Below are positions 10,130-45,408 of a stretch of DNA of 64,000 nucleotides, in pieces. The stretch covers positions 139,481,418-139,545,417 of the forward strand of contig CP092864.1 in NCBI GenBank assembly GCA_030710605.1, written 5' to 3'. The notes beneath the pieces are model-generated. The model was not told the DNA's origin. It saw only the letters and a list, made by a program, of their open reading frames with translations, and made no database searches. This DNA comes from Cordylochernes scorpioides (lineage: Eukaryota). The translations under genes and the position numbers were made by a program. Position 1 is the stretch's first letter. Each line of letters begins with the position of its first letter.

Positions 10130-10870
10130 AACCCGTCTTAATGTTAGTCCACAGTTAATAGGATTTTTTTTTACAACCTGTTTTAATGTTAGTCCATCCT
10201 TAAAGAATTTTCACAACCCGTTTTAAAGTTAGTGTATCGTTTGTCACAACCTCGTTTTTGTGTAGCTCATTGTCGAAGAGAGTTTTCACAACAGTGTCTT
10301 AATGTTAGTCCACAGTTAATAGGATTTTTTTTTTCACAACCTTGTTTTAAATGTTAGAGTGTCATTTGTAACAACCTTTTCACAACCTCGTTTCAGTGTA
10401 GCTCATTGTTGAAGAGAGCTTTCACAACAGTGTCTTGATGTTGGTCCACAGTTAAAAAGGAGTTTTTTTTTCTCACAACCTTATTTTTAATGATAGTTTG
10501 TCATCTTTATGAGTTGTGTCACAACCTTGTTGTAATACAACACATCGTTTTGAAGAGCTTTCGCAATCCTGTCAGGATATGATTTAGGAAAACTTTAGTT
10601 TTTACTTTTGTTTTTTTTATGCTCCAATTTCGTTCTTTTATAGAACCTTCAAATTTCTCACAACGCGATGTCTGCGTTCACATCACTAGGGTTTCTTTTA
10701 TAAGAATCATTTTTTTTACAACGCGATGTCTGCGTTCACGTCACTCAGGTTTCTTTTATAGAACCTTCATTTTCACAACGCGATGTCTGCGTTCACATCA
10801 CTCGGGTTTCCTTTTTAGAATCTCCATTTTACACAACGCGATGGTTGCGTTCACATCACTACATACTTAC
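10130..10870 (+). repeat. Two tandem arrays in the gypsy 5' leader: ~100-bp units (10130-10560) and 57-bp units x4 (10640-10870)
   Basis: Repeated CACAACC..GTTTTAATGTTAGTCCACAGTTAATAGGATTTTTTTT units and repeated TTTCACAACGCGATGTCTGCGTTCACATCACTCGGGTTTC units. The ORF at 10619-10933 is an artifact of the repeats. Confidence 0.8.
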
Positions 10871-11075
10871 ATGTATGGTTTCTATGTTATTGAATACCAG
10901 TTTCCTTTGAAACGTGAACCCCATAGTGTTTAGGAACATGATTAAGAAAGGACCCCCCCCTTTTCTTTCTGTTTTGTGTTCCCTACTCCGCCCGCCCCTA
11001 TGGGTCCTGATACTACAGTTACAACCAGGGTGAATGACTAATACCTAGTTCCTGTAGATCCAACAACTGAGGACC

Positions 11076-12077: not shown

Positions 12078-15000
12078 GTCCGGCTTGCCTCAAGGCAGGA
12101 GGGGGATTTGCGGCCAGTTTACCTGCTATAAATGTATATATTTTGAATAAAGGGAGGTCTCTGGACGAGAAGTGTTTAAAATTTATCTTAGATTCAGGCT
12201 CAGAGGCCAACATTGTAAATATTGACAATCTAAATTTATGCACTGAGGGACTAGACAAGCCTACTTACCATAAAGGTATATCAGGAAAATCTTTAAGGTC
12301 ATTAGGGAGTGAGGTGTTAGAAATAGGGGCAGTGGTGAACGGTAAGCCCATTAGGGAGATAAGAACGACCTTCGAGTATTGTCACATGGGGGAAATAGGA
12401 ATTGATGGCATACTCGGATTACCAGGCTTCCGAGCTCTAAAACTACACCTTAGCTACGACGGTAGTATTAGGTCCGACTACGAAAGGAAGGAGGATCCGA
12501 CCAAGTCGGCCTTCCTCTCCTCACTACAAACCATAGAAATGTCTCCCCAACCACCCAGGATACCACTAAACGAGATCCACACGGGCCACGATATTTTCAG
12601 GGCCTTCAGTCATTGCTTCTGCAATGATATAAAAGATATGGGGAATGGCTCCACCATCACAGCCCCTAAACTGAGGATGCTGACTAGCAAACCAGTATAT
12701 AGGAGGCAATATCCAATCCCGAATAAACTAGTCTCAAAGGTGAAAGCGTTAGTGGACGAGCTGGAGGAAGTAGGGATAGTAGAAGGGAGCACCTCTCTGT
12801 GGAATTCCCCTCTATTCCCGGTTGCCAAAACTGATGGTAGTGTTCGCATCACCATGGATCTACGTATGATCAATGAGGCAACTGAATTCTTCCCGTTCCC
12901 GATACCCCGTGTCGAAGACAATCTGCGCGCATTTGCAGGTGCAAAGGTCTTCAGCACATTAGATCTGACTTCCGGATTCTTCCAGATCCACATCCCAGAG
13001 AGCGACAGAGATTATTTTACCTTCTCTCTGCCCTGGGGGAGATATCGATTCACACGTTTGCCACAGGGAGCTAAAAACTCAGCACAGGTCTTCCAGTGGG
13101 CCATGAACTTGGTCCTGGGTGACTTGTTGTTCAAATGCGTTCGCCTGTACATCGATGACGTCATTGTCTACAGCGACTCTCACGAGCAGCATGTAGCGGA
13201 CCTCGCCGCTGTACTCGAACGCCTGAGTAAGTTCGGTTTGAAGGCCAAATACGGGAAGAGCTATCTCTTCAGGGACTCAGTAGAGTACCTGGGTCATGTA
13301 ATCGACCAAAATGGGATCAAACCCATGTGGGATAATGTCGCCGCTCTCAGGAATTTGAAACGACCTCATAACATCAAGGCAGTCAGAAGTCTATTGGGTA
13401 CAGTGAACTACTACCGACGCTTTATTCCCAACGCAGGTGAGGTCCTGGCTCCACTGAGCAACCTATTAAGGAAGGGACATAGATTTGCTTGGGGTGTGAT
13501 AGAGCAGTCAGCCTTTGAGACGGTGAAGGGAATATTAACCAGCGAGCCACTACTAATTCACCCAACAATTGGGGTTCCTTTCATCCTGAACACTGACGCC
13601 AGTGGGATAGCGGTAGGCGCTTGCCTCCAACAGGAGGTCAATGGGACAGTGAGGCCAATTGCTTATTATAGCAAGAGACTGACTGGTCCTGAGATCCGCT
13701 ATTCCACAATAGAAAAGGAGGCTTATGCAGTAGTGTTGTCCCTACAACACTTTAAACACCTCCTGGCGGGCGGTAGAGTAGAAGTACATACTGACCATAA
13801 ACCGATTACTTATAATAAGGGGTCTGATTATAAGAACGCCCGACTGTCTAGGTGGGCAGAGATCATCCAAGACTTCAACGTTACATTCATTTATGTCCCG
13901 GGGAAGGAAAACACGATAGCCGACTTCCTTAGTAGATTCCCGTGCGAGGATGATTCAAACCTACCACAAGATAGGAGGGTAGTGGCCACGGTGGTAAGAG
14001 ACCGTCGGCCCCCCTTATTAAATAGTAATCAGATATGGGAAGGTTTACTTCAAGAGAAAGGATGGGCCCCAGTAATGGATAAGTTAACGAAATTAAAACC
14101 AAATAGCACGGAGAGGTATAATGGCCGGGAATATAGGTTACTAGACAAATACCTCGTTACAAAGAATGAAAGGGGTACCTGGGTGAAGGTGGTTCCTACA
14201 GGTTTTAGGGAAACAGTGATCAGCTATCATCATGACATCGCTACTGGAGGTCATTTCGGAGTTAGAAAGGTTATGAGAAGGCTGAAAGGTGACTATTACT
14301 GGCCTGGCATGAGGACACAAGTCCGGAAATATATACGCAGATGCGAGAGCTGCCAGCTATCGAATCAAGGCGTAGCCAAAGCCGCTAGTGCTCCCCACTT
14401 TAGACCCGAAAAACCCTTTGAGCACCTAGCTCTAGACTTCATAGGACCCTTAGAAATAACCCCACGGGGTTATTCTAGCATTCTGACCATTGTGGATCTT
14501 TTCACTAAGTTCCCAATCCTGATTCCTACTAAGGACCAGTGTGCCAATACAGTGATTAGGGCCTTGTTGGAAAGGATAATCACTACCTTTGGGGTACCAA
14601 AAACGATACTCTCTGACCGAGGATCAGCATTCATGAGTTGCGTATTCAAGGGAGTCTGCAAGGCTATGGGGGTTGGTGCAGTAAATACCACGGCCTGGAG
14701 ACCTCAGAGTAATGGCGCCGTAGAAAGGCTCAATAGGACGGTAATAGAATCTCTACGCAGGTGTACAGCGGGGAACAATTGGGATACCACCTTACCAATG
14801 GTAGCCTTAGCTATCAGGACCACTGTACACTCTAGTACTGGATTTACTCCAGCGAAACTGGTCTTCGGACATGAGATTAGGCTCCCACAACCTTTCCAGG
14901 AAGGGGAGCTTAATCCTGTATGCGAGGATTCAATTACCGAGATGGCAGCCTTCTATGAGCGGGAATTGGTGGAGGAGGTTGAAAGGGTGAGAGAGGTGGT

Positions 15001-15526
15001 GAGGCAGACTTACTTGAAGGAGCAACAAGAAGCCAGGGCTGAGTTTGAAGCTAGAGAGTTAAGGATCTTTGAAACAGGGGATCTAGCTTTGGTAAAGAGA
15101 ATGCATGAGACGAAAGGACGTCACAAATTTGAGCCAAGGTATAGAGGACCTTATGAGGTACTACAAAGGACAGGCGACACTGTCTATCTTTTGAAGGATT
15201 TGGAGACGGGGCACTTGGACAAGATTCACATAGACAGAATGAAGGCCTATCATGCCCCAGTAAAGACTTACCCTACGGGGGACGGAAACACACAAGAACA
15301 AATAGATAGTATCACTGATGATGAGGATCACTGGGTACATCCAACGTATCCCATATATTCCCATAGAACTGTAGAACCAGTGGAACCACGAGAGACAGCA
15401 ACCTTAAGGAACCCGCCTGAGGTAGTAAATAGGGCAATTGGTGGCAATGTTGACGGCCCTGGAATACGTCGTTCAACCAGGGTCAAGAGACCCACTGATT
15501 GTAAATCATGCCCAGGTTGCCATTGA
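12011..15526 (+). CDS. pol: Pol polyprotein: aspartic protease (ILDSGSEANIV), reverse transcriptase (YIDDVIVYS), RNase H, integrase (HHCC zinc finger, DDE core, GPYEVL C-terminal module)
   Basis: 1171-aa uninterrupted ORF. The domain order PR-RT-RH-IN is diagnostic of Ty3/gypsy (Metaviridae). Confidence 0.9.
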   Translation: MLRVRRARAFHPRLPAEAEKKLGPACLKAGGGFAASLPAINVYILNKGRSLDEKCLKFILDSGSEANIVNIDNLNLCTEGLDKPTYHKGISGKSLRSLGSEVLEIGAVVNGKPIREIRTTFEYCHMGEIGIDGILGLPGFRALKLHLSYDGSIRSDYERKEDPTKSAFLSSLQTIEMSPQPPRIPLNEIHTGHDIFRAFSHCFCNDIKDMGNGSTITAPKLRMLTSKPVYRRQYPIPNKLVSKVKALVDELEEVGIVEGSTSLWNSPLFPVAKTDGSVRITMDLRMINEATEFFPFPIPRVEDNLRAFAGAKVFSTLDLTSGFFQIHIPESDRDYFTFSLPWGRYRFTRLPQGAKNSAQVFQWAMNLVLGDLLFKCVRLYIDDVIVYSDSHEQHVADLAAVLERLSKFGLKAKYGKSYLFRDSVEYLGHVIDQNGIKPMWDNVAALRNLKRPHNIKAVRSLLGTVNYYRRFIPNAGEVLAPLSNLLRKGHRFAWGVIEQSAFETVKGILTSEPLLIHPTIGVPFILNTDASGIAVGACLQQEVNGTVRPIAYYSKRLTGPEIRYSTIEKEAYAVVLSLQHFKHLLAGGRVEVHTDHKPITYNKGSDYKNARLSRWAEIIQDFNVTFIYVPGKENTIADFLSRFPCEDDSNLPQDRRVVATVVRDRRPPLLNSNQIWEGLLQEKGWAPVMDKLTKLKPNSTERYNGREYRLLDKYLVTKNERGTWVKVVPTGFRETVISYHHDIATGGHFGVRKVMRRLKGDYYWPGMRTQVRKYIRRCESCQLSNQGVAKAASAPHFRPEKPFEHLALDFIGPLEITPRGYSSILTIVDLFTKFPILIPTKDQCANTVIRALLERIITTFGVPKTILSDRGSAFMSCVFKGVCKAMGVGAVNTTAWRPQSNGAVERLNRTVIESLRRCTAGNNWDTTLPMVALAIRTTVHSSTGFTPAKLVFGHEIRLPQPFQEGELNPVCEDSITEMAAFYERELVEEVERVREVVRQTYLKEQQEARAEFEARELRIFETGDLALVKRMHETKGRHKFEPRYRGPYEVLQRTGDTVYLLKDLETGHLDKIHIDRMKAYHAPVKTYPTGDGNTQEQIDSITDDEDHWVHPTYPIYSHRTVEPVEPRETATLRNPPEVVNRAIGGNVDGPGIRRSTRVKRPTDCKSCPGCH
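12068..12074 (+). promoter_or_regulatory. -1 programmed ribosomal frameshift slippery heptamer A_AAA_AAC at the gag/pol overlap
   Basis: pol (12011-15526) is in the -1 frame relative to gag. The canonical X_XXY_YYZ heptamer sits 1 nt before the gag stop, and a GC-rich region follows. Confidence 0.75.
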
Positions 15527-18500
15527 TTTGAACCTATAGAATGTGTACTAGAGTTAGTTAAATTTTGATCATAGTATGAAGTGTTAGAATGTGAGTTAAA
15601 GGCCCTAGATTGTGGTCGTAAAGAAATTTCAGTTTTTTTTTTTTTGGAGAAGCTATTCTGTATTAATAGCAAGTGGTGAATTAAGTTGAGAGTTCAACAG
15701 TGTATTTTGTTTCGATTTTTTTATTGCAGGTTTTGAACAGTGGTTCAGCTTTAAAAACAATTAAGGGGCTTAGACGCACCAGACAATTGCTGTGCTTGTA
15801 ACATATTCTCTATGGAATGACTTGGAGCTTGCGTTGGGTAAAACTTGACTCCCTGTAAATCCCTGGGTCCAGTTATACAGTCCAAAGAGAATTTCTAATG
15901 AGAGTGTGTAAGGCAATTACAGTCTAAGAATTGATGTAATAGGATAGCAAGTCATCTCTGTTGTTAAACTCCAGAACGAGCTGGGTACTGAATGCCCTAT
16001 AAGTCCAAAGAAAGAGTTTAGCTGAATAGCAGGGAAAGAAGAATGCTAATGATCCTATACGGGAAGCAGCGTTGGCAAAACACTTGTAGAACTATCATAT
16101 TTCGGCAATGAGGTAAATGCTTGAAGTTCAGCTCGCTCCATTTAAGTGCTAGTTTTGATGATTCGTTTGTCTAGACACCAAGTGTCAAGATAAGAAGATT
16201 TTCAAACTGTTAGACACACAGTTAGAGTGGTAGGTTAGATTTCAGAATACAATTGTTGACAATCATCATAGTTTGATTTATTTATCTGTTTAAATATAAA
16301 TAATGTTTATCTACGTATAGATAACTTTTATGTAGGGTTTGTATGAGGCATTTATTTAAGTCAATAGGGCTTTAGTCCCCACTTTGTTTTAATTAGAAAA
16401 CTTTATTTGATTTCACATTAGTCCTGGAATTTAGAAATTGTTAGGGTTTATTTGATAGAGATTATTGAGTGTTTTGGCGTCTATAGCAGTTTTTAACTTT
16501 AGAATGAATGCCCACAGTGACTGAATTTTTTTTTTGTTGTATGAATGAGAAGTGGAATAAATGATGAGAAGGTTAAAAACTAGTATACTGTGAGCCCAAA
16601 ATACATTAGGATAGGATTAAGGAATTTATTAGGCTCAATTTTGATTTTGATTTCTTTATTTGTTAGGACCGGATGGCCTCACAGGACTGTACAACTCTAC
16701 TATTAGGAAAGGAATTCGCTCCATTTTGTTAGGTCTCCTCCAATGGGAGTATAAATTTGATTTCTATTATTAGGGTAATCAATCACCCCATTTCATCATA
16801 TCAACTTGAATTCTAAGAGTCGTAGATAATGATCATATCTCGATTCTCAGACTGGAAGGTTGTGGGAGGTTATGATCAGACCAGAAAACCCACCAAACTT
16901 CTCCTCATTAGAGGGAACGGAGAGGTATCAGGTGAACTTTGTGCTAGGTGGGGGGATTCAGTTGCCGACGTCGCAGACTAAGTGTAAAGCGACGAAAACC
17001 TCGGGTAAACGATCTGACATCGTAATTTACGACGCTTTGAGCGTGACTGAGATGAGGGTGGTTCAGACGGCAGGTTGAGAAGGTTCGGCGCGTTGAAGCT
17101 CCTCTATAAATTGCGCAGCTTGGAACCAATCCCCGATAGACAGAAACTTCGAAACATGTGCTGGGTAAATCAGTCCCTATAACTCCTTGATTTTAGGTCA
17201 CAGTCTAAAGGGGGTTTCTAATGAGAGTTAACAATGAGAGAGCGTGTAAAAGACAAGTTATGATTAGACGACGCGATTCCGTCTACAGATTTTTAGGTAC
17301 CAGTTAGCAAAGTGACAGATGGACTGTCCAGATTCTTTGCGTTTATATCGCCCCAGGCTAGCAAAAGTTAATCACCTAACTAAAGACTATCAGTCTACCA
17401 TACGTTTAGTTAAGACGAATTTAGGTCTAAATATCAGTTAATAAGTAGAAATTTTCTTTTTGTTACGAGAGTAACTCATCATAAGATAAGGTAAATTTTA
17501 AATTAGTAGGACTTTTAAATGAACTTCTGAGGCAGATCACCAGAACAAGCCAGTGTAGCTTTCAGACCTAAGAAGGAAGAATTTTTTTTTTTTGGAAAGA
17601 TCGATTCGGCCGTGAAAAGGCCTAGAGCAATGAGCTAGTCTTATTTTATTGTAGACATAGAATAGAATATTTTCAGAGAGGTGTTAAGAACTCGAGTTGC
17701 GGGTAGAAGGTATGAGTACACATTCTATAGATCATCTAAACAATGTATAATAGGGGTTAACTACATGTTCAGGTAAAGAACAAAGATAGGTTAGATTGTC
17801 ATCACGATAAGGTGACTTAGAAATAACCTGGTTTGGGAACGTATTGGCTATCATGATCCCCTTCATATATATATTCTTCCCTGATTTAAGAGAAGCGGGG
17901 AACATACCAGACAAAACACTCCCAATGACGAGTTGATAAGAACAATTTTAAGATATTCCAAGTAGAATTTGAAATACTAGTGAAATGTCCTAGACCCTCA
18001 GTGCACATCTATCCGTTTTATTATCATTATATATTCAATATTACTATATAGCATATATCATTCCTTTATTGTATTCATGTATATTTGTGTATGTAGAATT
18101 AACGAATAATTACTGTGTGTGACATTTTGGTAACGGCATTGTTTCCATCTTCAGACAAATGTACCGAATGAGGATTCTAATCACAATTTATAGATTCATC
18201 TGTTCACCATAGTATATCCTATATATATGTATATCAAACCATTCCGTTCATACCTATAGTAAACATCCATCTTAATTTTTTTTTTTCTCCGCGTATATCT
18301 GCATTGCCCCACTTTGACATACATAATATCCGTGCAAATTTAATGTGTATATTCACTTGCCACGTTTCTGTTTTGCCCTGTTATTAGTGTCATTGATAGG
18401 AGATGCAATTTTAGTATTCTTTTTTATATTACCATTACCATGGTAACCATGTATAGTCATTCCTTTGCTGTCATGTATATATCTTATAGAGTCAATAAAG

Positions 18501-18958
18501 TTTTTTTTTTTTTGGATATGTTTTAGGAATTGTACATATCTATATTAACACACACAATTCCTTGGCGCCCTTAATAATTATGTTTATCTAGGAGGTACTA
18601 ATAGTTTGTTTGTATAGAATTGATGTTTAGACCATCCCACACCTCCACCATGAGGACCATGGCTGAGAACATGTGGACTTCACTCACATCTGGGCCAAGA
18701 CCCCCCCGGGTCACAGACAGCGAAAGGGTGGGCTTAGTACATTGCTCATTAAATGGTAGAGTAGAATTTCCTCCAGTACTTACATTGAGCTAACATGTTC
18801 CAGGTTCATGGCCCGTATATTCCTCCTTTGTCCGAGTGTCAGTGATTGCTTGCTGATATCATAAAAGAATGCATTTCCCCCGGCTTCATATTTCTCATAG
18901 ACTATAAACAGATATGAATTGGAATAAACGCATTCTTTCACTCTGGTGGGGGAGGAAT

Positions 18959-21900
18959 TGTTGGGTCAGTTTTTCCATTAAACAAAACCCAACAAAGATG
19001 TAAACATTCATTTACATCATATAAACATATATATACGCAGTGTCTCGCCGAAGTGTTTGTTGCCTAGGTGGAAAACTCCCAACGATGGCCGACGATGCTC
19101 TAAAGGCCCCCTTCCCTGACGCAGGGCCTCCCTTGGAAGGATGTGCAAAGGGCAGACACGTGAAGACACGGGTGACATCCAGAGACATCCGTGCTGAGAA
19201 CTGCTGTACCATATGTACATATATTGCTGTACCATATGTACATATATTCCCCTCATTTCCTTTTGGTAGTAGGTGACCTAAGGAAAACAATGTGTCATTT
19301 AAACATATAAATTAATAATTTTATATACTCGGGATATATATATATATTTTAATATAATCAAAATATATATATATATTAATTAATTCCCAAAGGAATTAAT
19401 TTTAGGGGTTAATTTGTTTTATCCAATATACGATTTCTTTCTCGCGCGGCAACACGGGAAATTGGGGGCGTGGTCATGGGGGGACGTGCGTGTTTTCTTC
19501 CGACGAATGGAGATGCCCATTGATCACGTGGGTGTTTGCCCTCGGCGAATCAAAATGCCAGCCAATAAAGGCTTTGGCATGATCAACGAATGGAAATGAA
19601 GAAAGACTAGTATAAAAGGGCCCGTTTTTGACTAAAAAAGGATCAGACAGAGAGAGCCGCTCAGTGACAGTAGAGAATTTATCCAGACGAGCCTGGGACG
19701 TAGAGGAGACAGTCCGTGCCGCCGCTTTCCGAAAGAAGGTAAGCACGCCATTATGGCCCAACTCCCTTTCATAGTTTTCAATTAGAAACAGTTCTATTTA
19801 GAATCAGAATGGGCCCTAAAAGGGCTTTAAATACAAGATAGAATGTTTGTATTTTCGTGTCTTGTCCCGTTAGAAGGGATGGAGATCTATGTTCTCCAAT
19901 CTATAGAGAGGAAATAGTATCCTTAAGTCACCCTACCTATATTATTATGTAAATAGTATGTCCCGCCAGCATAAAAAAAAAATGCCCCCAAAAATATGAA
20001 TAGTTCAAATAAATATCCAATACATATCGTATGAGAGTAATTTCTTGTTCTCTCTCCTACATACTCCATTCTTTTGCCCTATGATGTTACTCCCACTGTA
20101 TAAATGAAATGTTGTATGTTTCTTATCTATTTGAAGGGAATGTTGCTAATAATTAGGTCTCCATAAATTGCCGGTCATATACATCGTTGCAAGTGTCTGT
20201 GTTTCAGTGTGCCTGCATCATGTCTACTTTATATTGTTCATTGATTTAAAATTAATAAGATACATGTTGTCTTAAAACTCATTAGGTTGTTCTCTTTACG
20301 GCTTTATTGAAGACCCAGGTTTTAGATATATTATGATTGTTAATGTCAATGGCATAAGTCTATAGTTTGCTTGTCCTTTATTATTAGATTTTTGGTGTAA
20401 TCTTCATAAATAGAGTTCTTCCCATATATCCAGATGGTAACATACTTATCGCATCTTGTTGAATCTTTACTATAAAGGATTAGGATTAATGTATACCTGC
20501 ATGTGCGGCCAGATTTTCCACCAATGGAGTCTGAATCAGGTACTTCATGATATCTACTTTGAAATATTGTTTTCCGCCCACTATACTTCAATAGAAATAT
20601 TAGTTTGGTCTTGTATATTCAGGATTTTAGTCTCTAATAGTAACATGTTCATCTTTTCTGAGATCTTCCAAAGTCGTTGGATGATCTCAAAGGACGTGAC
20701 ACAAAGAGATGGGTGCGTCACGGACCAAAGTCCGTTGGACTGTAGGGGCGGTAAAATGGATGGCGGTTCCATTCCAGCGTCTATCTTTATGATGGGAGAG
20801 CCGTTCACTATTAAGGGTATAGTTTGCTTGTCCTTAAATCTTATTTGTTAGTCTTCAGATATAACCTTCACAAGTAGGGTTCCTTCTACATATATCCAGA
20901 TAGCAAAATAATTCAAATATCTTAACCACTTGTTATATGCTAAGTACAGACTATTTACATATTTTTAAACTAAGGTTAAATTATTATATAATAAAAATAT
21001 AACTTATGAAATTTGAATTAGCCATGGAGCAGAGTTATGGCTATTGTATCTTTTTATTCTGATTTCTGACTATTGCGCTTATGTCAGGTATGTTTCTATA
21101 ATATATCCCTATACCATATTTTCTAATTCTTCGGGCTATTGTTAAGCAGTTAGGAGGGTAAGGTGTGATGCAAATAGATCTATATGTATGACTACTGTCT
21201 GTGTCATTTGGGTTATAAAAAGAAAGGGGGATGCCTTAATATGAATCTATCCGCAATTGACCTGTAGAAATTATAGAGATCTATTGCTATAATCTATTGC
21301 TATTGCTATGTCTTGATGACAGAGCCGACCATTATTTCACAAATCATTTTAACGTAGTGAAGGAACAGGAATAATTCGATATTTCCCCCCTTTCTTCCTA
21401 ATTACACGTGAGCCCTAATTTAATGGGAGTGTCTTTACACATCTGTCCTAAACTTCCCACACTATATCCCTTGTGTATAAATCTATTTTTTTAATTCATC
21501 TGTAGAAATATAGAGATCTGTTGCTATAATTTCCTCTATGAAGTAGCTACCAGCGTCTTCAGTAGGTGGCTAAATCGTTAGAAGGCGATTCTTTTAGAGG
21601 AATGGTTGAAACAACGAGGGAGGCAAAGGAAGGGTCCGCCATTTTTCTTTCATGGAAGAAGAAGCAGGAGAGAGTATGGATGTAAGTTGAAACCCCTGAG
21701 ACGTTTGGACCCCACATTCCTGAGACATCGTTAGTTCGCGCGCGAAGGATCCATCAACGGGACTGCCTGACGCTGGGCCCCTTTCCCCCCCCCCCCCCCC
21801 CCCGCTATTAGTGGAATTCCACCCATGCCTGGCGTGGTTGGAAGCCTCACTTGGAACTGCATTCCTCTAAATCCTTCTGTACTTTGTATATTATCTGATA

Positions 21901-22094
21901 TTCCATTCTTCCAATTATAGTTCTTATGCTCAAGTGCTACATTGCTTATCTCTATATCAAACGCCTTGCCTATTGTGGTAGAGACCCAGTTACCAAAATG
22001 TTACATTTGCAGTTTTTTTTGATAAATAATTTTTTTGTATTAAGTCACTCCCTACATGCTCCGTTCTCGTAGGTCTAAAATAGGGAACGCGACA
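18959..22094 (+). repeat. B-type interspersed repeat, copy 2 (tail continues to ~22425)
   Basis: Near-identical to 2919-6049. About 70 bp upstream (18890-18958) is also homologous to the sequence upstream of A copy 2 (29130-29197). Confidence 0.85.
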
Positions 22095-24656
22095 GCTATT
22101 ACATATAAGTTACTTATATTATTGTTGATATTATTAGCTGGTACTAGGATATATTGTGTTATATGTTTCGGGCAAATCTATTTTCTATTAATGCTATTGT
22201 GTTTTCTGAATAATAGAAAATCAATTATAAGCCTTTGATATTTGCTGTTTATGTTATTGTAATGTATTCTAGGTTCTCCTAATGCGAAAGTGTGACCTGT
22301 TCCTTTGCAGTATTGGAAAATTAGAGACCTATTGTCTTGATTAATAACGTTGCATCTATGTTCATATATTCTATTGCTGACTCTCCTTCCTGTCTCCCCT
22401 GCGTATTTTGGCTTGGCAGCTGTATACACTCTGACAAGGGAAGGTTATCCTGAATTGACAAATGTATAATTTTTGTCTTTAGTAGAGATTTCCAAGACTC
22501 TATTTCTGAAACATTTTTTTTAGATGAAGACAAATAAAACCATCTTGATAGTATTGAATTTTACAGTAAATATTTGCCAGCAGAAGGCATGATGAGATTA
22601 CATGAAATTTAAACCAGTTATATGTTTAGTATGTTCCTTCAGTTGTAATTTGACACCGTCTTGAAATAAAGAAATTGGACGGTGCGCTATATCTTGATGC
22701 TGGATATTTCTGTGTCAGAAAGGTGTAGTTATTCTGTTTAATGAGAATTCCAATAATTATCGAAATTTAGCAGATTATCATTGGGGATTTGAACAACTGT
22801 CTTGAAAATTTTTGAACAGCCCGAGTAGATAGAAGAGTCCTAGAGTTAGAGTGGAGAATTAGTAGTACAGACTGACCACTCGACGCAGATAACTCTAGGG
22901 AACAATTACTGTGATAATCCGCCGTAGACAAGAAGAACATTGATTCTCAGGATACTCGATAGGCAGAATTTTGAGAATTGATAAAGTCATGGTTAAAGTT
23001 TACACAGGCATGTGGGAGTAAAGACAGTGATTTAAAGAGGCAGCCTTGTGTCTTAAATACTTTCAGTGGAAGCAGATGCCACTGCAAATATTCAGGTCTA
23101 ATAATTTCCAAATTTGAAGTCATGCATGACGGGTTAGCACGGGATTGACGCCTGGACGGGTTTCCACTGGGATTAATCGAGCTTGCGAAAGAACTAGAAG
23201 AAGTGTGACATGTCACGCCACTGTACTAAATTAATAATTGAGAAGATTTATGTTGAGCCAACTGAAATTAGTAAAGAATTAAGAGATTAAGGTCTTATTC
23301 TTTGAGTTTTACACTAATTTCAATTACGCGATATGGACGGCGTTATAAGTTGGGTGGAAATGATTCGGCCGCAATGGGATGGTCTCCTGGAGGTGGTACG
23401 ATCAAATACTTACTTATTGAATGCCGGGCGGGATCGCATGAAGCATTAAATGACATCGTGAAATGCTTAAAGAAACACCCTAGAAGATTGGGGATCGACA
23501 AAATGACGACATGGAAAATGCTCAACATTGTACATTGGCAGCAAAATGATATCTTGCTATTGTATGGACGACCACTCCTTCCTGAAATGTGCAGCGGATG
23601 TTAGTCCCAGAATTAGGTCCTTTGAGGCGACACTTTCCTTTGCAGATGACATAAAGACGCATGACAAAAACAGCACATGAGCATTTAAACTAACTTCAAT
23701 TCCTGCCATTAATTAATTTAGTTGACCAATAGCTATAGAACCGCTGGAGACCTCCATACCCTGTGTGAATATTTTAGTGAGAAATGAGCGATTCAATTCT
23801 ATGAGCTATGAGGTATCCTGTAAGATCAGAGCTGTACCCCATTCAATTTTTTTTATAGTAGCCAGTGCGAGATATTTCCAGAATGTTTGTTTCTTTTTTT
23901 TTCTAACTGTCATATAATTCGGAAACTAGAAAACTACACTATTTTGATACAGTTTACATCTAGCATCCATGAGAACTCAATATGACTATTGAACGTAGAT
24001 TGAAGACTAATGAGCGAGCCAACCTAAAGAGAACGAGTTTAATAGGCTTACAATCAATAGTTGAAGCAAACTATTCGCACAAATTTGTTATGTTCTCTCT
24101 CTAAATGATCTATGACATTATAGATTTTCTTAACAAGGTAACTACCCCGCCGAGTGTATATGGAGTTATAAAGCTTAAGGGTCATAGGCTGTTGGAATAG
24201 AGTAGTTCAAAATTAAGAGTGATAATAGATCGGGATCCAGATCCCGATGACGGGTTTCGAAGAGACTTCAGAGGGATGAAAGAGGTGTTGAAAGTGATGG
24301 AAGGGCGATGAAATATGATGAAAAAGGCGTTGAACTGTGTTATAAGGTGATGAATAAGAGATGAAATGTGTTGAAGGCGTTGAAGAGAGATGCGATGGAA
24401 GTAATTTGAAAGGCGTTGAGGATGATGAAGGATGATGAAAGAGTGAGAAAGCGTTGAATGTTGATGAGGAAGAGATAGAAAGATGCAGAAAGATGTTGAA
24501 AGAGAAAGAATTGAAAAAAGTTGGATAAAGGGTTTTGTAAATAGTAGATAAAGATTGATGGAAGAAAGTACATTTAATGTATAAAGCGTAGCTGTCGACC
24601 GCAATATCGCCTCGATAGAACTATTTCTTTTAAAATAAGACATATTATGCACTGGG

Positions 24657-27545
24657 GGTTTGTGTAAGCTGATTTTACATAAGTTTCGGCAACAATATAC
24701 ACTATTTAATATAGATAGGTCTTTATTAATTACAATATTAGGTTATATATTAAATAGCAAATATGTCTTAGTGTTATGGTGAACTTTGAAGAACTTGCAG
24801 TTTTTCTTTTATTTTAAACTATAACGTGTGTTCTAAACTTCCAGTTTTTCCTACTTTATTTTTTTGTTAACAATTTTGTCTTAGTGTCATGGTGAACTTT
24901 AAACAGTTTGCAGTTTTTTTTTTATGTGTTCTAGTGCTAAGTGTTGGAAGGAGCTTTAACACCATGTTTCAGGGTTTGTGTGTTATTTGTCTCAACCTTG
25001 TCTTTGTGCAGAATACCGTCTCACAACCTTGTTTTAATATGACACACCGTTTTGAAGAGCTTGTACAACCTGTCAGGATATGATTTAGGAAAATTTTAGT
25101 TTCTTTTTATTGTTATGTTACAATTTTATCCAACAATACAACCAGAGCGAACTCAGAAGTAATGAGACGAAGGGGCGTCACAAATTTGAGCCAAGGTATG
25201 GGGGTCCATATGAGGTACTAAAAGGAGCTGGTGATACTGTATATCTCTTGAAGAATCTAGAAACTGGGAATTTGGATAAATACCATATAGATAGGTTAAA
25301 ACAATACCATATACCAATTAGGATTTTCCCCACAGAGGAGGAGGAGACTAGTGATGGTAATTCAAGTCAAAGTTCCAGTGATGAAGATCATTGGATTCAT
25401 CTTACAGGTCCAGCTTATCTCCCTAATAGGTCTGTTAATGTAGTGGTTCCACAAGGGGTGACAACCAGAGCGAACTCAGAAGTAATGAGACGAGGGGAAG
25501 TTGACAGAGTTAGTGTGAACAGTTTAACTTTACGCAGGTCTACAAGGGTGAAAAGGCCCACACAGTGTAAATTCTGCTTAGACTGTCGCCTCTAACTAGG
25601 ATTTTGGAGTGTGTACGGAGAATCAGCTCGATAGAATGAGAAGTTTAGAGATTTCAACCTTTTTTTTTTTTAAACCTTTTTTTTTTTTTAAAGTAGAACT
25701 TCATTAGGATTCCTTTTTTTTTTTTTACAAACTATTTCTTGTTAAAACCCGAGTTTCAAAGACCAGTGAGAATAATGTATACCATTGTGAATTAACTATT
25801 TAGTGTAAATCTGAAATTTTAGTTATTATCAGGAGTAATAGGTGAAGGAAGGTGTAGGAAATCACAACTTAGAGGGGGGGCTATGTCTAAAACAACAAAC
25901 CTAATAGGCATCCTATGGCTTGTGTTGGGTAATTCAGAAACCCTATAATCCCTGGCCTTCAGGTAGTAGCTTTGAAATAGGTTTCTAATGAGAACATGAA
26001 AGGTCAATCTCTCAGAGTGAAATTGTGAAGTATAGGGACCCTAAGCCAGGGGTAGAAGTTAAGTAGGCCCAGACTGTAGTCGATCCTTGGAAAGCACTTG
26101 AGAATGTTAGTGTTGGGTAGTGAATCGTAAACCCTATGAATCCATCTTTCAATAGAGTGCTGAGGTCGGACTACTGCAAAGGGGGCAGACGCACGAGGAA
26201 GTAAGAAGAAAGTGACTTCACCCACGGTGGCTAGGGGAGAGACTCAATCCGCTTTTATGAGGTGTCACGCCTAATGGTCCTTTATTCGCCATTATAATTT
26301 GTGTATGTCTTTATATAGAATTGTCGTGAAAAGTCGCTTGGTGTCAAGGCAAGGGCAGTTTTTGAAGTTACACTGATTTTTTTTAGTAGGTTAGCTTCCA
26401 GATTATTTAGAATTGTTAACATTTGATTGTTAACAATCAATTTTGTTTATTTGTTTAAATATAAATAATGTTTATCCACGTATAGATAACTTTTATGTAG
26501 AGTTTGTATGAGGCATTTATTTAAGTCAATAGGGCTTTAGTCCCCACTTTGTTTTAATTAGATAACTTTATTTGATTCCTCATTGGTCCTGAAAGACTTT
26601 ATTATTGTTAGGGTTTATATGATAGAGATAATTGAGTGTTTTGGCGTCTATAGCAGTTTTTAACTTTAGAATGAATGCCCACAGTGACTGAATTTTTTTT
26701 TTCTTGTATGAATGTGAAGTGGAATAAATGAAGAGAAGGCTAAAAACTAGTATACTGTTAGACCAAAATTACTTTAGAATAGTGTAGGGAATTAACAGGT
26801 TCGATTTTTTAAATTTGATTTCTTTATTTGTTAGGATCGGGAGCCTCACAGGACTGTAAAAACTCTATTATTAGGAAAGGTATTCGCTCCATTTTGTTAG
26901 GTCTCCCCTTATGGGAGTATAAAATATTGATTTCTTTTATTAGGGTAATCAGTTACTCTATTTCATTATATCAACTTGAATTTTAAGAGTCGTAGATAAT
27001 GATCATATCTTGATTCTCAGACTGGAAGGTTGTGGGAGGTTATGATCAGACCAGGAAACCCACAAAACTTCTCCTCATTAGAGGAAACGAAGAGGTATAG
27101 ATTGAATTTTATGCAGGATGGGGGATTTGTTTTAGCCATGCCGTATAGCCTGGGGTATAACGGCGCGACCTTGGGTAACCGATCTGACACCGTAGTTTCG
27201 ACGCTTTTAGCGTGGCTGGAGCGAGGGTGTACCAGACGGGAGGTCCTGTAAGATTGGCATGTAGGCAGAGATTGCCCAGTTATTCTAGACGAAGTGTTTC
27301 CGTCTATTGAATTTTTTTGGTACCAATTTGACCCCCCATAGCTAGCGGAAGTTTCTTCTAATAAAGGATTCGCCCTGCCATACGTTTTGTTGGAATGAAT
27401 TCGAGCATAAGACCGATTCGAGAGGCAGAATAAGTAATTATTAGGACCTTCAACGAGTTTAGACTCGTTCCATGTTAGGATAAGATTTTAAAGTATTAGT
27501 TAACTATAATGACCGCGAACGAGACACCAGAACAAGCCAGTGAGT
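24657..27545 (+). mobile_element. Internally deleted (non-autonomous) derivative of the gypsy element: 5' leader plus integrase C-terminus plus 3' region
   Basis: 24657-25136 matches the leader 9497-10620 with fewer tandem units. 25137-25595 encodes the integrase C-terminus (KFEPRYGGPYEVL, HIDRLKQYH). 25596-27545 matches 15527-17560. Confidence 0.8.
25110..25595 (+). pseudogene. Truncated pol remnant (integrase C-terminal ~150 aa only)
   Basis: The ORF aligns to pol residues around ETKGRHKFEPRYRGPYEVLQRTGDTVYLLKDLETGHLDKIHIDRMKAYH. Everything upstream is deleted. Confidence 0.8.
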
Positions 27546-29197
27546 CAAAGTTTTAGAAGTGTTGTATTGAGGACAGTAGAATTAAGAGCAGTTATACAGG
27601 GAGTAGAATTCTGAAGGAATTTGTAAAAGGAACCAAAATTTCAGATTGATAAAATTCAAACTTATAAGATATAGATTTATAGGATTCAGGTCAATGAATA
27701 GAGGGTATATTAGTAGATGAAAGTAATGTGAATTTCTTGGAAGGGGGAGGTAGCTGAACTGTACACACCCCAGAGGCAAGGTAAACGGAGCCACAAACAA
27801 AATAGTAGAAATTGATTAGTCGCTCTGCCAAAACAGAAAATTTCTCTTCATACGGTTGTCACCCTAGATTTAAATGGACTGTGTAGTTTAATAGAGGTCT
27901 GGGCTATGTTCCATTTGACCAAGATTCTAAATGACGTACCCATCTGGGTTGAGAGAGTATTGTAATTTGAGGAATCTAACACACAAGAGAGAACACACCC
28001 TCCAATAGGATCGGGATAGACGAATATTACCCAGTGACCAACTCGTGATTCCAGACTGAATAAGATTGAAAACTTAATTGAGATACTAAACCTTGATCCT
28101 TCAGCGCACAAATATACATTATGTTTACATTTTCTTTTTCAATATGTTATTATTTTTATATCATATATATTATATTATAGTCATATACTATTCATTTCAA
28201 CAATTTTATTTTGACATTCATGATATTCATATTTATATTAAATATTTAATTATATATATTTTGTCACCATATATAATCTTGTAGTAGTTTTCTTTTGTCA
28301 TCTATCATGGGATGATTTTTATCACTTATATCTTAACATATTTAATCACTATCTACATGATATGTTTTTACTTCAATATATATGTTATACTCATCATATA
28401 ACATGGAAGGATTCATTTTATCATTACATATTTCGTGCCTTATTTAATGATTACTTACATAATTTGTTTTCTGTAATTTTTATTTAGCAAAAGTCATCAT
28501 GTCATAGGCTAATCATTATATACCAAGATATTTCTTTCAGCTAACTATAATTATCCTTTCCTTTGATTGTATATATATATAACTATACCACACGAATGTC
28601 TTGATTGGTACGAAAATAAAGATGCTGGCATGTTTTAGGAGTTGGACTAGTCAGTTATTTCTAAACGACTTCTTGGCGCCCAATTTTTTATATATAATAT
28701 GTAATAGGGAAATGTCCTAACTGTATTGTTAGCAGAAAGAAGGTAGCAATGAATCCAGTACCCCAAGAGGCAAGGATGGGGTTGAGAGGACTTACCACTA
28801 GGAAGGCCTACTCCTCAAGACCAAAGAAGAAAGTGGAAGGGTGGTATATATACCCATGAATGGTAAGACAGATGACCTTGCTTACTTCCATACATATGAT
28901 ATGACTGTCCCCAATAACCTATTTTGATAACAGTGTTCTGACAGAATAATAGCACATAAAAACCCCTTTGCCAGGATGCGCAATGCCCACTAGTGTTCGG
29001 AATAATAAACATCTAGAATGGCATACCATCATTTTGACTAGCCTTACCTTCCCTATAGGTTTCGGTACACCTGGCTTCACCTAGTAATGGAAAATGCATT
29101 TTGCTAGAAATGGGCCTGCTTTCATAGTAACTGATGAAAGGCAGATGAATAATGAATAACACAAACGCATTTGTCCATTACTTGGCAGGGGGAGGAT

Positions 29198-30069
29198 TGT
29201 TGGGGCACGTTTTTGTAACCATACCCCAACAGAAGGCGTATGTATAATCAAATCAAATGGATACATGGCTTCCCTCCCACATAGACTTACAGACCATTCT
29301 TTTTGCCCAGAAACCTAGACAACAGATGACACCAGACTTCCATGCCGAAAGCTGATGCCTGGTAAAGAAGAAGACATCCAGAGACATCCGAGCTGGAAAC
29401 TGTTGTTTCATATGTACATATATTCCCCTCACCAAAAATTTAGGTAAAGGTGACCAGAAAAAAAAAAAAAAAAATGGAGAAGGAAGATCTCTAAAAGACT
29501 GAACCGAGAAAGGAAAGCGTTATATTACAGTGCAAGTGAAAAGGGGCCTGTGTCAATTTTAGCTAAGACGGAGGGGGGGAGCGATATATATATATCGTCC
29601 CGAGAAAAAGGGAGGATGATATTTCAATCCATGTGGATGGGAGGGCTGGCGTCTGAAATTTTACACTATCGCCGTAGATGTTACTCTCTTTAGATTTTTG
29701 TTTTGGTAATACTATATGTTCTATTTTGATGGAAGAGGCCTGGAGTCTGAAATCTTACACTAGTGCCATGTTGTTTCTCTTTTGAGATTTTTTTTTTGTT
29801 TTGGTAATACGATATGTTCTTTTTTTGGTGAGGCCTGGGGCGTCTATGAAATTGATACTGGAGCCGTTGGACATTTGGATTGGTTTTCTTTCGGCGAATG
29901 AAAATGGAGAGAGGGAGGATATAAAAGAAGGTTCTTTGCCAAAAGGCAGGATTCGATCGGAGTCGCTCAGTGAGAAGGACGATTTTTAGACGGGCCTGAG
30001 ACGTAGAGGAGACCAGACCTTGCCGCCGCTTTCGAGAGAAGGTAAGCCCCTTGCCATTATGGCTTAGCC

Positions 30070-30101
<32 letters not shown>

Positions 30102-30972
30102 CGAACAGAAGCTAATCTATTTAGATTCTGAATGGGCCCTAAAGGGCTTTAAGTGACTTAAAAAGGAGTGTTAGGGTTCGTATATTTTGTCCCGCTAGAA
30201 TAGATGGAGATCTAGGTTTCCCCCCCTTTTTGTGTAGTAGCCAACCTAGATTTCGCATGGGCCTTAAAGGGCTATAAAGTAACTTCAGGTCACCTCTATC
30301 TAAATTTTACTATGTAAATAGCATATCTCGTCAGTATAGACATGTTCCCAAATTTTAAGATATTTTAAATAAATGTCTAGAGAAATTTTCTTGTTTCCTC
30401 TGTTACCTATTTCATACATAATTTGCCTTATGGTGCTATTCCCACTGTTTAAATGAAATGTTGTATGTTTCTTACCTATTTGAAGGGAATGTTACTAATA
30501 ATCAAGTCTCCCATAAATTACCGGCCACATACATTGCCGCGAGTGTCTGTGTTTCAGTGTTTTATAGATTGCCCAATTTAATAACGATTTCATGGGTTGT
30601 CTGATAATATTGTATAATAGTGTCGCGGCTGTTTCCATCTTTAGACCATTGTTCTGACAATATTATATGCTCGATCCTTGCTTTAGCTCAACTCTTAATC
30701 AATTACAGAGTTTTTCCCCCCTTTTCTTTTTTATTTATTTTATTTATCCTGTTTGCATAAATTGCATTACATGTGATGATGTAAAGACATATGCCGATAG
30801 TGCATCACTGACAGCTGTGCTGCTATTATACAACATTAAGGTCTTGCTGTGGGTTATATACATGGGGTTGTTGGCCTAAATTGCTATATATATATATACT
30901 TAAGTAAGGAAACTTTTAATAAGATACATCGTGTATCCTCCCTTTTCAACTATCCAAACCGGGAACCCATCA
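29198..30972 (+). repeat. A-type interspersed repeat, copy 2
   Basis: Near-identical to 549-2310. It ends at the same AACCCATCA and is followed directly by the LINE 3' terminus. Confidence 0.8.
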
Positions 30973-32389
30973 GTTGCACGGCTATGCAACTCCAATATCT
31001 GTGGGCCAGCGACCCGTCGTTGGACCGCACAGGTGGCACGCCTTGAGGCAGGATGGTCAGCATAGGTAGAGTGTAGTGGGCCAGTTATAGGGCGACATCT
31101 GCGTCGAGTCACGAGAAGCATTTGCGACGCAGGTCGGCCCAAGTGATCGATCCGGGCACATTTACAGTGGGAGTCCGCCGCGCAGCCAGCTCTTCAAAAG
31201 GATGCGCCTGCAGCCATGCCGAGTCCAGTGGCGGGGCGCGATCTGACTGGTTAGGCGGGTAATGGGCGTTGTTGAGTCCCTTAGGACGATGGTCTCCGCC
31301 TCGTACTCCGCATGATAGCTGGAACTGGATTTTTCCTGCAATAAGGGTGGCAGAAGGCCTACAAGTGCTGCGCGTCCAAAAGTCTAGCTCGCGTTGAGCA
31401 CACTAGGACAGAGGTGCCATCCGAGAAATCACCGGTTGGCAGGGTGTAAAATCTGGTGGTCCAGCTTGAGAACGCTGGACACGGCGTTCCAGAGACCCAG
31501 AAGCCTCCTTCTTCTCGGTGAGTGCCAGACGTCGGGAGCCGGCGGGATCAGTCTCGCCCGGCTGCGAATTAGCCAAGAGTAGCCGTTGGCGGTGCCGCGC
31601 AGGAGGCCTGGACGCCCTTCAGTCAAGAGAGCCGAAGCGGGCCCGCGATGTCAAGCAGGCCGACGCCACTCTCGGAGATTGGGCAAGCCAGGATTCCCCC
31701 GAGACGCACGAGACTCGGTTCATAAGCGCGTCAGCAGCTAGCCGATGGAAGTTACAGGTGAAACGTAGCCGTGGAGGTGGTTCAGGATAGAATCCAGGAC
31801 CAGGCTGTTGGCCGCACGGGCACGATCCACCAGCGACAGGCCACGAATGAAGTGAGACCACCTCGCGATGGCTCGCTCCAGCAGCTCCATCAAATGGGAA
31901 GCCTTGGGAGGCGAGGGTGTTCCAGGTAAAGATTGTGCAGCCTAGAATTATCAATGACTGGAGTCCAGAAAGTTCCCAGTGGATAATCCGCCTGGTGCTT
32001 CAAAGAACTTCACCAGAGCCCGAAACTCTTGCTCAAGTTGATAACCACCCCAGAGACCATGCGGTACTCTTCGGAAATCAGGGGCATGAGCTCAAACTGA
32101 GCGTCGTCCCTGATGCTGATGAAGAGTACGATGTCATTCGCGTCATTCACATAGGCGACACGTAGCCGCAGCCCAAGATCCTCTCGACACGGCGTAGCAG
32201 ATGCCCAACTCTGATGCTGAAGAGAGCGGCCTTAAGACGACAGCCCTGCCTCACCCCATTGAAAAGCGGAAAGGCCCTGCTGTGGACATTCCCGATCCGG
32301 ATCCGTAGAGGACAGCAATCAACCCGAGAAAGGCAGATGGTAGGCCCCGCTTCTCCAACAGGGAAAATAGGTAGCTTCAGCTGAAACTC

Positions 32390-33664
32390 TCGACACTTTG
32401 CTTATAAAATCCTGAAAACTCAATATATTTTCTCCCGGTTTGTGGCAAACGCAAGCGTCGCCCTTGGCTTGGAGACCTGCCAATTTTCAAAAATCACGCG
32501 CCACAACAGCGCGAGCAGCGGCTGAAGTGAAGCCATTTTGCCCGTGCTTCGATTTCGTTAGTCACCGAAATGGAGGATCAACGAATTTGGATCAAGTTCT
32601 GTGTGAAAAACAGATTCAAAGGTGCCAAAATTTCTGGATGTTGCAAACAGCCTACGGGGATGCCGTTATGAGCCGGAAACGAGTTTTCAAGTGGTACAAG
32701 CGCTTCAAGGAGGGTCGGGAAGAGACCGCCGACAACGAACGTTCCGGGAGACCGTCCACATCAACCACGCCTGAAAAAGTGGACAAGGTGTTGGAACTGG
32801 TGCGTGAAGACCGACGAATAACTGTCAGGGAGGTCACCGAAGAAGCAGGGATATCATTCGGGTCGACTCAATCGATAATGAAGGACATTTTGGGAGTGAG
32901 AAGACTCAACGCCGTTCTCGTTCCCAAAGATTTGACTTTTGATAAAAAGAACGCCCAGAAAGAAACGGCCAGTCTCAATCTTGAAGCGGCAACCGACGAC
33001 CCCGAATTGCTGAAGAGGGTCATTACTGGAGACGAAACATGGATTTACGATTTTGATTAGGAAACTACCCAACAGACATCGGAGTGGCGCTTCAAAAATG
33101 AGCCGAGACCAAAGAAAGCGAGGAAGGCTCTCAGCAAAGTCAAGGTCATGTTGACGGTGTTCTTCGACTACCAGGGCATCGTTCATCATGAATTTCATCA
33201 ACAAGGCTCTACAATAACTGCTGACTCCTACCTGGAAGTTTTGAGGCGATTGAGGGAAGCGATCAGGCAGAAACGGCCGGAGCTGTGAAGGAGCAAGTCG
33301 TGGATCCTCCACCACGATAACGCGCCGGCGCACACAGCCCTCAAAATCTCGAAGTTCCTGCAGGACCACTCAACCTCTGTGTTCCCTCAATCCCCCTACA
33401 GTCCCGATTTGGCCCCCTGCGACTTCTTCCTTTTTGGAAAGCTAAAAAAAAGTTAAAGGGTCGGAAATTTCAGAGCATAGAAGAGATCAAAGTGGAATCG
33501 AAGGCCATGAAGGCGATCCCGAAAACAGACTACCAGAGGTGTTTTGTCGACTGGAAAAAAAGGTGGCTGAAGTGCATCGCGGCCAACGGGGACTACTTTG
33601 AAGGGGACAATTTGAATTTGGTAGAATAATAAAGTTTTTTTTTAAGTTATGAGCAAAGTGTCGA
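32390..33664 (+). mobile_element. mariner-like element (about 1.27 kb) nested in the LINE, with 18-bp terminal inverted repeats TCGACACTTTGCTTATAA / TTATGAGCAAAGTGTCGA
   Basis: Encodes a mariner transposase with an HTH region (RITVREVTEEAGISFGSTQSIMKDILGV), ITGDETWIYDFD, HHDNAPAH and a C-terminal SPDLAPCDFFLF..DYFEGD. The terminal repeats have one mismatch. Confidence 0.8.
32570..33625 (+). pseudogene. mariner transposase pseudogene (frameshift near 32600-32640; stops at 33058 and ~33287)
   Basis: The N-terminus MEDQRIWIKFCVKN is in a different frame from the 206-aa ORF at 32440-33060. Downstream segments need further frame changes. Confidence 0.8.
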
Positions 33665-38868: not shown

Positions 38869-39101
38869 TTTATGTATAAACAAGGATTGACAATAGAATA
38901 TATGAAGGATGTGATTGAAAGTTTTTTTCATTTATTGGGTAAAAAAAACAGCAAACTTTCAAGCATTAGCCTTTTATAAGGACATTGAGTCTGCATAGAT
39001 GAGCACTACAATAATTCAACCCACTATAATATTCAACAGGAAGTACCTTTTCCTTAGGGAATGGAATTAAAGATATTTGACTGTATATATATGTCATAAT
39101 T

Positions 39102-39798
39102 TGTAAATAGCTGTATGCAACCCCGACCCAATATGTATGCAATGTATGTTTCAAAGACTTAATAAAGAATAAGGTAACTGGAGGATAGAACGCCTTAGAG
39201 AAACAAGGCCTAGAAAAGAGGCTTAAGAGTCAGCACAACCATTAGCAAAATTACAGCCAATTTTATGATCGCGGAAATAATAAAACTTGAGTTCAACGAC
39301 ACAGTATTTCCTGGTCGCGTCAGGACAAGTCCAAAAGACAAAGAAATTAGCAAGGACCAATTAGGAAGCAGCTTCCCAAAGGTCAACCAATAGAAAACGG
39401 CCACGTCCCACCTTTCGACCAATGGGAAAGAAGATAGGTCTTGGTGTTAAATCGAGAACCTAGGATAGGCAATCTTCGACTCGCTCCCATCGGGATAACA
39501 CCTATAGTAGTTGTTTCGCTCCCACCGAGTTCGGACCTAGTTCACTTCGCTCCCACCAAGATAGCACCTAAAGTCAATCACCGCCATGTGAATCGATAGG
39601 CCAATAGTCAGAAACCGCTCCGCCTTCTTTCAAGCCTTTCTTTCCTCCAACCAGTTGCCTTTTATTTTCAACCCATCAAGTGTCCTGGCTTATTTCCCCT
39701 GGTGTGTAAACCTTACCACTCAGCCACCACGACTGCGCCACCACCTCAACAATCACCAACCCCAAGAGTAAGATTTCCCAGCATAGAATATTACGATA
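39102..39798 (+). repeat. 5' long terminal repeat of the non-autonomous LTR-like element
   Basis: Direct repeat of 42156-42852. The minus-strand ORFs 39210-39422 and 42264-42476 are identical. Confidence 0.75.
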
Positions 39799-45206: not shown

Positions 45207-45408
45207 TGCAACATCTTCGTACACATTTATTTTTAGCAAATCTTTATTGTCTTAGTAAAGTCTGATACAGCCTTTTATTGTTTATTTTCGGAACGCCAAA
45301 AAGTGACAAAAACAAATCAAAAAGGGATGATGATAACCTGCGTCTTGCAGATTAACATTTTCATAGAAACATATATATATATACATATTTATTGCTAGCT
45401 ATATATCA
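45207..45408 (-). repeat. 3' LTR of gypsy-like element 2
   Basis: Identical to 49562-49763. Confidence 0.9.

Follow-up and report, generated by a model that had tools for sequence, protein, structure and literature searches.

Internally deleted retrotransposon derivatives typically arise when reverse transcriptase (RT) switches templates between or within co-packaged RNAs. Abnormal strand transfers between co-packaged RNAs have also been proposed to generate the tandem repeats of retrotransposon untranslated regions (UTRs), where such arrays are common and hypervariable (PMC7004042). The insulator of the Drosophila gypsy element consists of 12 Su(Hw) sites with the consensus YRYTGCATAYYY, located within 340 bp of the 5' UTR (PMC2374998). 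Here we analysed a 64,000-nucleotide window of AT-rich, transposon-dense eukaryotic DNA from Cordylochernes scorpioides (contig CP092864.1, positions 139,481,418 to 139,545,417), and in particular its positions 24657-27545, which an earlier note had described as an internally deleted gypsy copy with an array-bearing leader and no recognisable long terminal repeats (LTRs). The window contains two nested Ty3/gypsy LTR retrotransposons, and 24657-27545 is, with a probability that we put at about 0.93, the internal core of the outer one, a larger, canonical, recent and internally deleted non-autonomous element that extends from 549 to 30972 on the forward strand. This outer element has 11,244 bp of its own sequence once the inner element is excluded, so that the region singled out earlier is only about one quarter of it, and it is comparable to the large retrotransposon derivatives (LARDs), with long LTRs and a mostly non-coding interior. 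The assignment to species and family follows from the pol open reading frame (ORF) of the inner element (12011-15526), whose product is 97% identical to the C. scorpioides NCBI protein P0001; besides P0001, a protein search with inner pol returned about 20 C. scorpioides paralogues at 54-95% identity. We found no literature on the transposable elements of this species.

The LTRs of the outer element were revealed by comparing the whole window with itself. The 5' LTR (TGTTGGGG...CCCATCA; 549-2310, 1,762 bp) is a direct repeat of the 3' LTR (29198-30972, 1,775 bp), from which it differs by 4 substitutions and 3 indel events, a substitution divergence of 0.23%, and the termini read TGTTGGGGCA...CCCATCA, with the usual TG..CA ends. 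The pair is flanked by a target-site duplication, GTTG, lying directly left of 549 (545-548) and directly right of 30972 (30973-30976). A site resembling a primer-binding site (PBS), TGTCGCCCGCCGCGGGGCTCGAA (2312-2334), begins 1 nt past the 5' LTR and aligns with the PBS region of the inner element, and a polypurine tract, GGCAGGGGGAGGAT (29184-29197), adjoins the 3' LTR. Four of the first 18 positions of the PBS-like site (TGTCGCCCGCCGCGGGGC, 2312-2329) differ from the inner PBS, including a change of TGG to TGT; the three additional changes fall in the part that pairs with the acceptor and T stems of the tRNA. The ~80 nt beyond are 74% identical to the inner element and include a 35-nt perfect match. 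The leader contains a conserved block, the first part of which (2447-2918) is interrupted by the insertion of the inner element, and the remaining leader (22099-25133) is made up of three segments: the second part of this block (22099-22432), similar to the inner leader; 2.2 kb (22433-24657) in which no similarity to the inner element is detectable, here and below by blastn at a word size of 7; and an array-derived segment (24658-25133) similar to the inner array region.

The inner element (2919-22094 on the forward strand, 19,176 bp, termini TGTTGGGTCA...GCGACA) is a full-length Ty3/gypsy retrotransposon between identical 4-bp copies of GCTA (2915-2918 and 22095-22098). Its LTRs (2919-6049, 3,131 bp, and 18959-22094, 3,136 bp) are direct repeats that also differ by 4 substitutions and 3 indel events, in this case a substitution divergence of 0.13%. 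The LTRs of both pairs begin with TGTTGGG and end with CA, and identity within pairs, indels included, is 99.0-99.5% over 1.8-3.1 kb. The 18-nt inner PBS, TGGCGCCCAACGTGGGGC (6051-6068), is unique in the window, lies 1 nt past the 5' LTR and presumably pairs with the 3' terminus of animal tRNA-Lys(CTT); a tRNA-Lys-type PBS is also present in Drosophila gypsy. The polypurine tract, GGTGGGGGAGGAAT (18945-18958), is directly upstream of the 3' LTR. The interior begins with a leader of ~5 kb, carrying a non-coding block with 88% identity to the outer element (6328-7145) and three tandem arrays (9503-10861). It is followed by gag (11076-12077), in which Pfam recognises a Retrotrans_gag domain and a CCHC zinc knuckle, by pol, and by a 3' UTR of 3.4 kb with a second conserved non-coding block (16277-16935, 89.4% identity to 26442-27105). 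The ORF coordinates place pol in the -1 frame relative to gag, and the overlap of the two contains a slippery heptamer, A AAA AAC (12066-12072). The order of activities in pol, protease (PR), RT, RNase H (RH) and integrase (IN), is that of the Ty3/gypsy superfamily: a DSG protease motif is seen in the N-terminal translation, without a Pfam protease match, followed by RVT_1 (residues 272-431), RNase H (494-622), the IN zinc finger (728-785), the IN core domain rve (800-898) and an SH3-like tail. Past pol, no env ORF was found, the longest plus-strand ORFs having 72 amino acids (15527-18958, inner element) and 73 amino acids (25596-29197, outer element), neither with a Pfam match; because env is missing, the two elements do not belong to the errantiviruses or gypsy sensu stricto.

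Direct proof of the nesting comes from the outer leader. Upon excision of the inner element together with one copy of GCTA (2919-22098), the two parts of the outer leader block (2447-2918 and 22099-22432) are rejoined and align unbroken with 6328-7145 of the inner element, at 87.8% identity over 822 bp; the inner element was therefore inserted into the leader of the outer one. The order of LTR divergence, with the outer pair at 0.23% above the inner at 0.13%, matches the nesting order. The outer copy thus inserted first, and recently, creating the GTTG duplication, and a 19.2-kb full-length element of a related subfamily later inserted in its leader at 2918/2919, creating the GCTA duplication. 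Nesting also displaces the outer 5' LTR 22 kb from the core. Canonical LTR pairs thus lie outside the coordinates considered in the earlier note, according to which both copies lack them. They were overlooked because they are situated 2-7 kb beyond the central homology block, with the outer 5' LTR shifted further by the nesting, and because the two subfamilies have diverged so much that only a few blocks still align.

This bears on two other interpretations of the termini. The first, raised together with the absence of LTRs, is that the family has unusual or very short ends, or that both copies have been truncated alike at the strings TTTGTGTAAGCTG ... CACCAGAACAAGCCAGTG. These strings are indeed present where they were reported (24659/9504 and 27525/17538), and at ordinary BLAST sensitivity the similarity between the two copies does end near 24658/9503 and 27542/17555. 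It resumes further outward, however, first in the PBS region and also in the leader block of 822 bp; TTTGTGTAAGCTG is in the leader, at the start of a 104-bp repeat unit, and CACCAGAACAAGCCAGTG in the 3' non-coding region; and each element is bounded by long LTRs of the TG..CA type, with 4-bp duplications, a PBS and a polypurine tract. Unusual, short or truncated termini are thereby refuted. The second is that the long direct repeats arose by segmental or tandem duplication and are not LTRs at all, with the apparent nesting a result of duplication or of faulty assembly. A recent duplication or an assembly artefact could likewise account for 99.0-99.5% identity over 1.8-3.1 kb, but the repeat pairs are ordered A-C...C-A, each has TG..CA ends and its own 4-bp duplication, each has a PBS after the left copy and a polypurine tract before the right one, and the removal of one pair with its interior restores a contiguous homologous block. 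A duplication would not yield such features, and we give this explanation next to no credence.

About 4.45 kb of the inner element (~10647-15098), comprising the 58-bp array, gag, PR, RT, RH and the IN zinc finger and core, have no counterpart in the outer element, where the only remaining Pfam signal is that of the IN C-terminal SH3-like domain. The outer element thus has no gag/pol coding capacity and has kept its LTRs, PBS and polypurine tract, which is what characterises a LARD-like derivative. The central claim of the earlier note, that of an internally deleted non-autonomous Ty3/gypsy derivative that has lost gag, PR, RT, RH and most of IN, is borne out, and the homology blocks confirm that part of the leader, the IN tail and the 3' non-coding region were kept. 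The IN tail is encoded, from 25162 on, by an open 161-codon ORF (25110-25595 on the forward strand; SH3_Tf2-1 / Integrase_p58_C). It is identical at 112 of 116 amino acids to the C-terminus of P0015 and at 111 of 116 to that of P0014, two members of an autonomous subfamily whose pol is ~70% identical to inner pol, whereas its identity to the inner element is ~54% in protein and ~60% in nucleotides. Judged by this tail, the deleted copy belongs to the P0015 subfamily and is not derived from the neighbouring inner element, contrary to what had been implied; the inner element looked like its parent because the two are related subfamilies. Between the outer and inner tails, pS is 0.72 (saturated), dN/dS is 0.12 and substitutions fall preferentially on third codon positions (p = 0.003). 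Coding constraint has therefore acted on the tail while it diverged in a separate autonomous lineage, and the deletion is recent.

The site of the deletion can be read in some detail. Leader homology stops near 25133, corresponding to ~10641 in the inner element, at the start of the 58-bp array. The junction itself (25138-25174 on the forward strand) consists of 37 bp that repeat 25461-25497 at 97% identity and run into the IN coding sequence at the 9-nt ATGAGACGA; over 32 nt the duplication is exact (25139-25170 and 25462-25493). The ATGAGACGA motif occurs both at the 'HETKGRH' site of IN (15105 in the inner element, 25162 in the outer) and, further downstream, at the donor site (25485). Such a templated duplication, 37 bp long and placed at a microhomology of 9 nt, suggests template switching. 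An autonomous element of the P0015 subfamily would have lost ~4.45 kb, from the end of the leader to the last ~140 codons of IN, most likely through two microhomology-guided template switches by RT, one of them via ATGAGACGA, leaving the 37-bp duplication, and the other perhaps via ACAAC, a motif of the leader arrays. The parts that were kept and that presumably act in cis, i.e. the LTRs, the PBS, the PBS-proximal leader block, the 3' block and the polypurine tract, would make reverse transcription and integration possible with proteins supplied in trans.

Several observations weigh against this picture of the outer element. Microhomology with a short templated insertion is also a signature of replication-based repair, and a replication error after integration, whether by slippage or by microhomology-mediated repair, leaves the same scar and is an equally possible source of it. 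The 4.45-kb deletion could then have been made in chromosomal DNA after integration, and the copy would never have been mobilised as a non-autonomous element. The nearly identical LTRs and the still open IN-tail ORF point to little time since insertion, and RT template switching is the usual origin of such derivatives; neither point is decisive, and we regard a chromosomal deletion as a possible but rather unlikely origin. A further difficulty is the outer PBS, which has TGT instead of TGG, as well as three further differences from the inner PBS; their distribution suggests that the outer element uses a different tRNA isodecoder as primer and has acquired one mutation since its insertion. There are also three stretches with no detectable counterpart in the inner element, at 22433-24657 (2.2 kb), 25617-26340 (0.7 kb) and 27543-29197 (1.65 kb), in which further small nested insertions could be present. 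Lastly, the deleted form is known here from one genomic copy, which sets the amplification of a family against a single event. A protein search for other deleted copies with the 161-amino-acid ORF gave one match, at 51% identity and of unrelated length, in a search that missed even P0014 and P0015.

The segments that still align between the outer and inner elements are the LTR tips, a 600-bp LTR segment (68%), the PBS region with its perfect 35-mer, an 820-bp leader block, the array region, the IN tail and a ~660-bp 3' block. In the core, outer 24658-25143 corresponds to inner 9503-10647 in the leader (64-83% identity), 25155-25616 to 15098-15548 at the end of pol (~64%, with 82% over the first 118 bp), 26341-27244 to 16182-17075 in the 3' non-coding region (83-86%, E = 0) and, weakly, 27334-27542 to 17351-17555 in the same region. 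The ~600-bp core at 68% is common to the 1.76-kb and 3.13-kb LTRs (1303-1898, 3615-4173, 19654-20210 and 29960-30560), and in the longer LTR ~1.8 kb of extra sequence follow this core before the 3' end is reached; the LTRs of this lineage therefore change in size by large internal gains or losses.

The two non-coding blocks, at 88-89%, are better conserved than the coding DNA shared by the elements (60%, with synonymous sites saturated). The leader block (~820 bp, 88% identity) has its ~12% divergence evenly spread, and the 3' block (26341-27244 in the outer element, with a core of ~660 bp at 26442-27105) is 89% identical and contains 100-bp stretches at 96-98%. Neither block shows a sign of coding: each frame contains 14-24 stop codons, codon periodicity is lacking (p = 0.25 for a 3-base period of substitutions in the 3' block), and the small ORFs of 72 and 73 amino acids, which have no Pfam match, differ mostly at non-synonymous sites. 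We detected no excess of RNA folding in the 3' block (z = -0.38 and -0.03) or in the leader block (z = +0.29), no Rfam match in 1-31500 at E <= 0.1, and no match to an exact 29-mer of the 3' block in metagenome contigs. Conservation of these blocks may reflect either a cis-acting function, for example in packaging, export or promoter activity, or recombination between subfamilies, and the even divergence of the leader block leans towards recombination. It is possible, but we think somewhat doubtful, that the blocks are under purifying selection as the cis-acting signals of the lineage for packaging, export or transcription, in which case the deleted element would mark the minimal cis-requirement for mobilisation in trans.

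The leader arrays turned out to be poorly preserved between the two elements. The inner element has three of them on the forward strand, of 2 x 104 bp (9503-9716), of 45/139-bp units (10115-10578) and of 58 bp x 3.9 (10633-10861). In the outer element, where the earlier note had the tandem arrays retained, this is true of one ~104-bp unit, as opposed to the two of the inner element; neither the 58-bp x 3.9 array nor the 45/139-bp array was found in it, and it has a two-copy repeat at 113-bp spacing. The same note had likened the arrays to the Su(Hw) sites of gypsy. Like those sites, they are located in a 5' leader, and 650 bp of the inner leader contain 11 copies of the motif TCACAAC; the whole window has 17 against 7.2 expected, a count that no shuffled sequence attained. 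A role as protein-binding arrays with insulator- or enhancer-like activity, by analogy with gypsy, nevertheless seems most unlikely to us. Any tandem array repeats its own motifs automatically, and the deleted element has a single TCACAAC, lacks the 58-bp and 45/139-bp arrays and has a different unit duplicated. Matches to the YRYTGCATAYYY consensus with at most one mismatch are at background over the 64 kb (18 against 15.2 expected), only one of them being in the arrays (10857), and the core TGCATA is absent from the plus strand of either leader; a clustering of sites like that of the gypsy insulator is not seen. Moreover, env is lacking and the elements fall outside the errantiviruses, and hypervariable tandem repeats in UTRs are common by-products of replication (PMC7004042). 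Nothing in the sequences analysed here supports a regulatory role for the arrays.

Further repeats and transposon ORFs lie in the rest of the window. A GC-richer block just right of the outer element carries a mariner/Tc1-like ORF with a helix-turn-helix (32440-33060, forward strand). Two 700-bp direct repeats (39099-39798 and 42153-42852, 99.3% identity), 2.35 kb apart, enclose ORFs at 39803-40300 and 40431-40961 without Pfam matches, and the whole (39099-42852) probably represents a further small LTR element or a pair of LTR-like repeats. On the reverse strand, 45207-49772 is occupied by a second and unrelated Ty3/gypsy element, with 211-bp LTRs (45207-45417 and 49562-49772) that are 98.6% identical and one ORF running from gag through PR, RT and RH to the IN zinc finger (46373-49408); its IN core is in an ORF apart (45422-46330). 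Further right, 52553-53899 and 55649-55833 contain a 73-bp satellite of ~18 units, with higher-order periods of 146, 219 and 493 bp, and an array of three 60-bp units. Beside the satellite, a tRNA-Gly(TCC) is predicted on the reverse strand (54210-54280), which could be either a genuine tRNA gene or the head of a short interspersed nuclear element. A piggyBac-type transposase ORF follows on the forward strand at 57293-58966 (DDE_Tnp_1_7, E = 4e-71).

The structural correction avoids a false report of an 'LTR-less gypsy' and leaves 30 kb of a little-studied arachnid genome cleanly annotated. With 4 substitutions between the LTRs of each pair, the two elements are very young. They show recent activity in C. 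scorpioides of at least two subfamilies from a giant Ty3/gypsy lineage, with elements of up to 19 kb and LTRs of 3.1 kb, and this lineage yields non-autonomous deletion derivatives. If we infer its history correctly, the deletion junction would illustrate with textbook quality a template switch made in two steps and guided by microhomology, and the two conserved non-coding blocks are candidate cis-acting signals.

Among described systems, the errantivirus gypsy of Drosophila resembles these elements as a member of the Ty3/gypsy superfamily whose 5' untranslated leader carries repeats in a cluster (PMC2374998). It differs in that neither an env ORF nor a cluster of the YRYTGCATAYYY consensus is present here, in that the repeat units measure 45-139 bp here as opposed to 12 closely spaced sites of ~12 bp in 340 bp, and in that our arrays are not conserved between the two subfamilies. 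The inner element resembles in its architecture giant Ty3/gypsy elements such as Tat and Ogre of plants (PMC7004042), with which it shares a great length (19.2 kb, with 3.1-kb LTRs), long UTRs and hypervariable tandem repeats within them. Unlike Tat and Ogre, it has an arachnid host, its arrays are in the 5' leader and not in the 3' UTR, and it has no extra ORF; the likeness is one of structure, and we claim no phylogenetic kinship. The arrangement of the two elements has no essential difference from the nested LTR insertions of large plant and animal genomes, where a younger element is likewise found inside an older one, each with its own target-site duplication and with LTR divergences ordered accordingly. 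General knowledge of LTR retrotransposons is unchanged by what is an ordinary, if large, nested pair. The outer element itself is comparable to LARD-type derivatives, which similarly have long LTRs, a PBS, a polypurine tract and a target-site duplication around a long interior without gag, PR, RT, RH and IN core, and leader and 3' blocks in common with autonomous relatives that could supply proteins in trans. It differs from them in being known here as one copy and not as an amplified family, and in keeping an open 161-codon IN tail and a readable junction, the marks of a young derivative rather than of an old, fully non-coding family.

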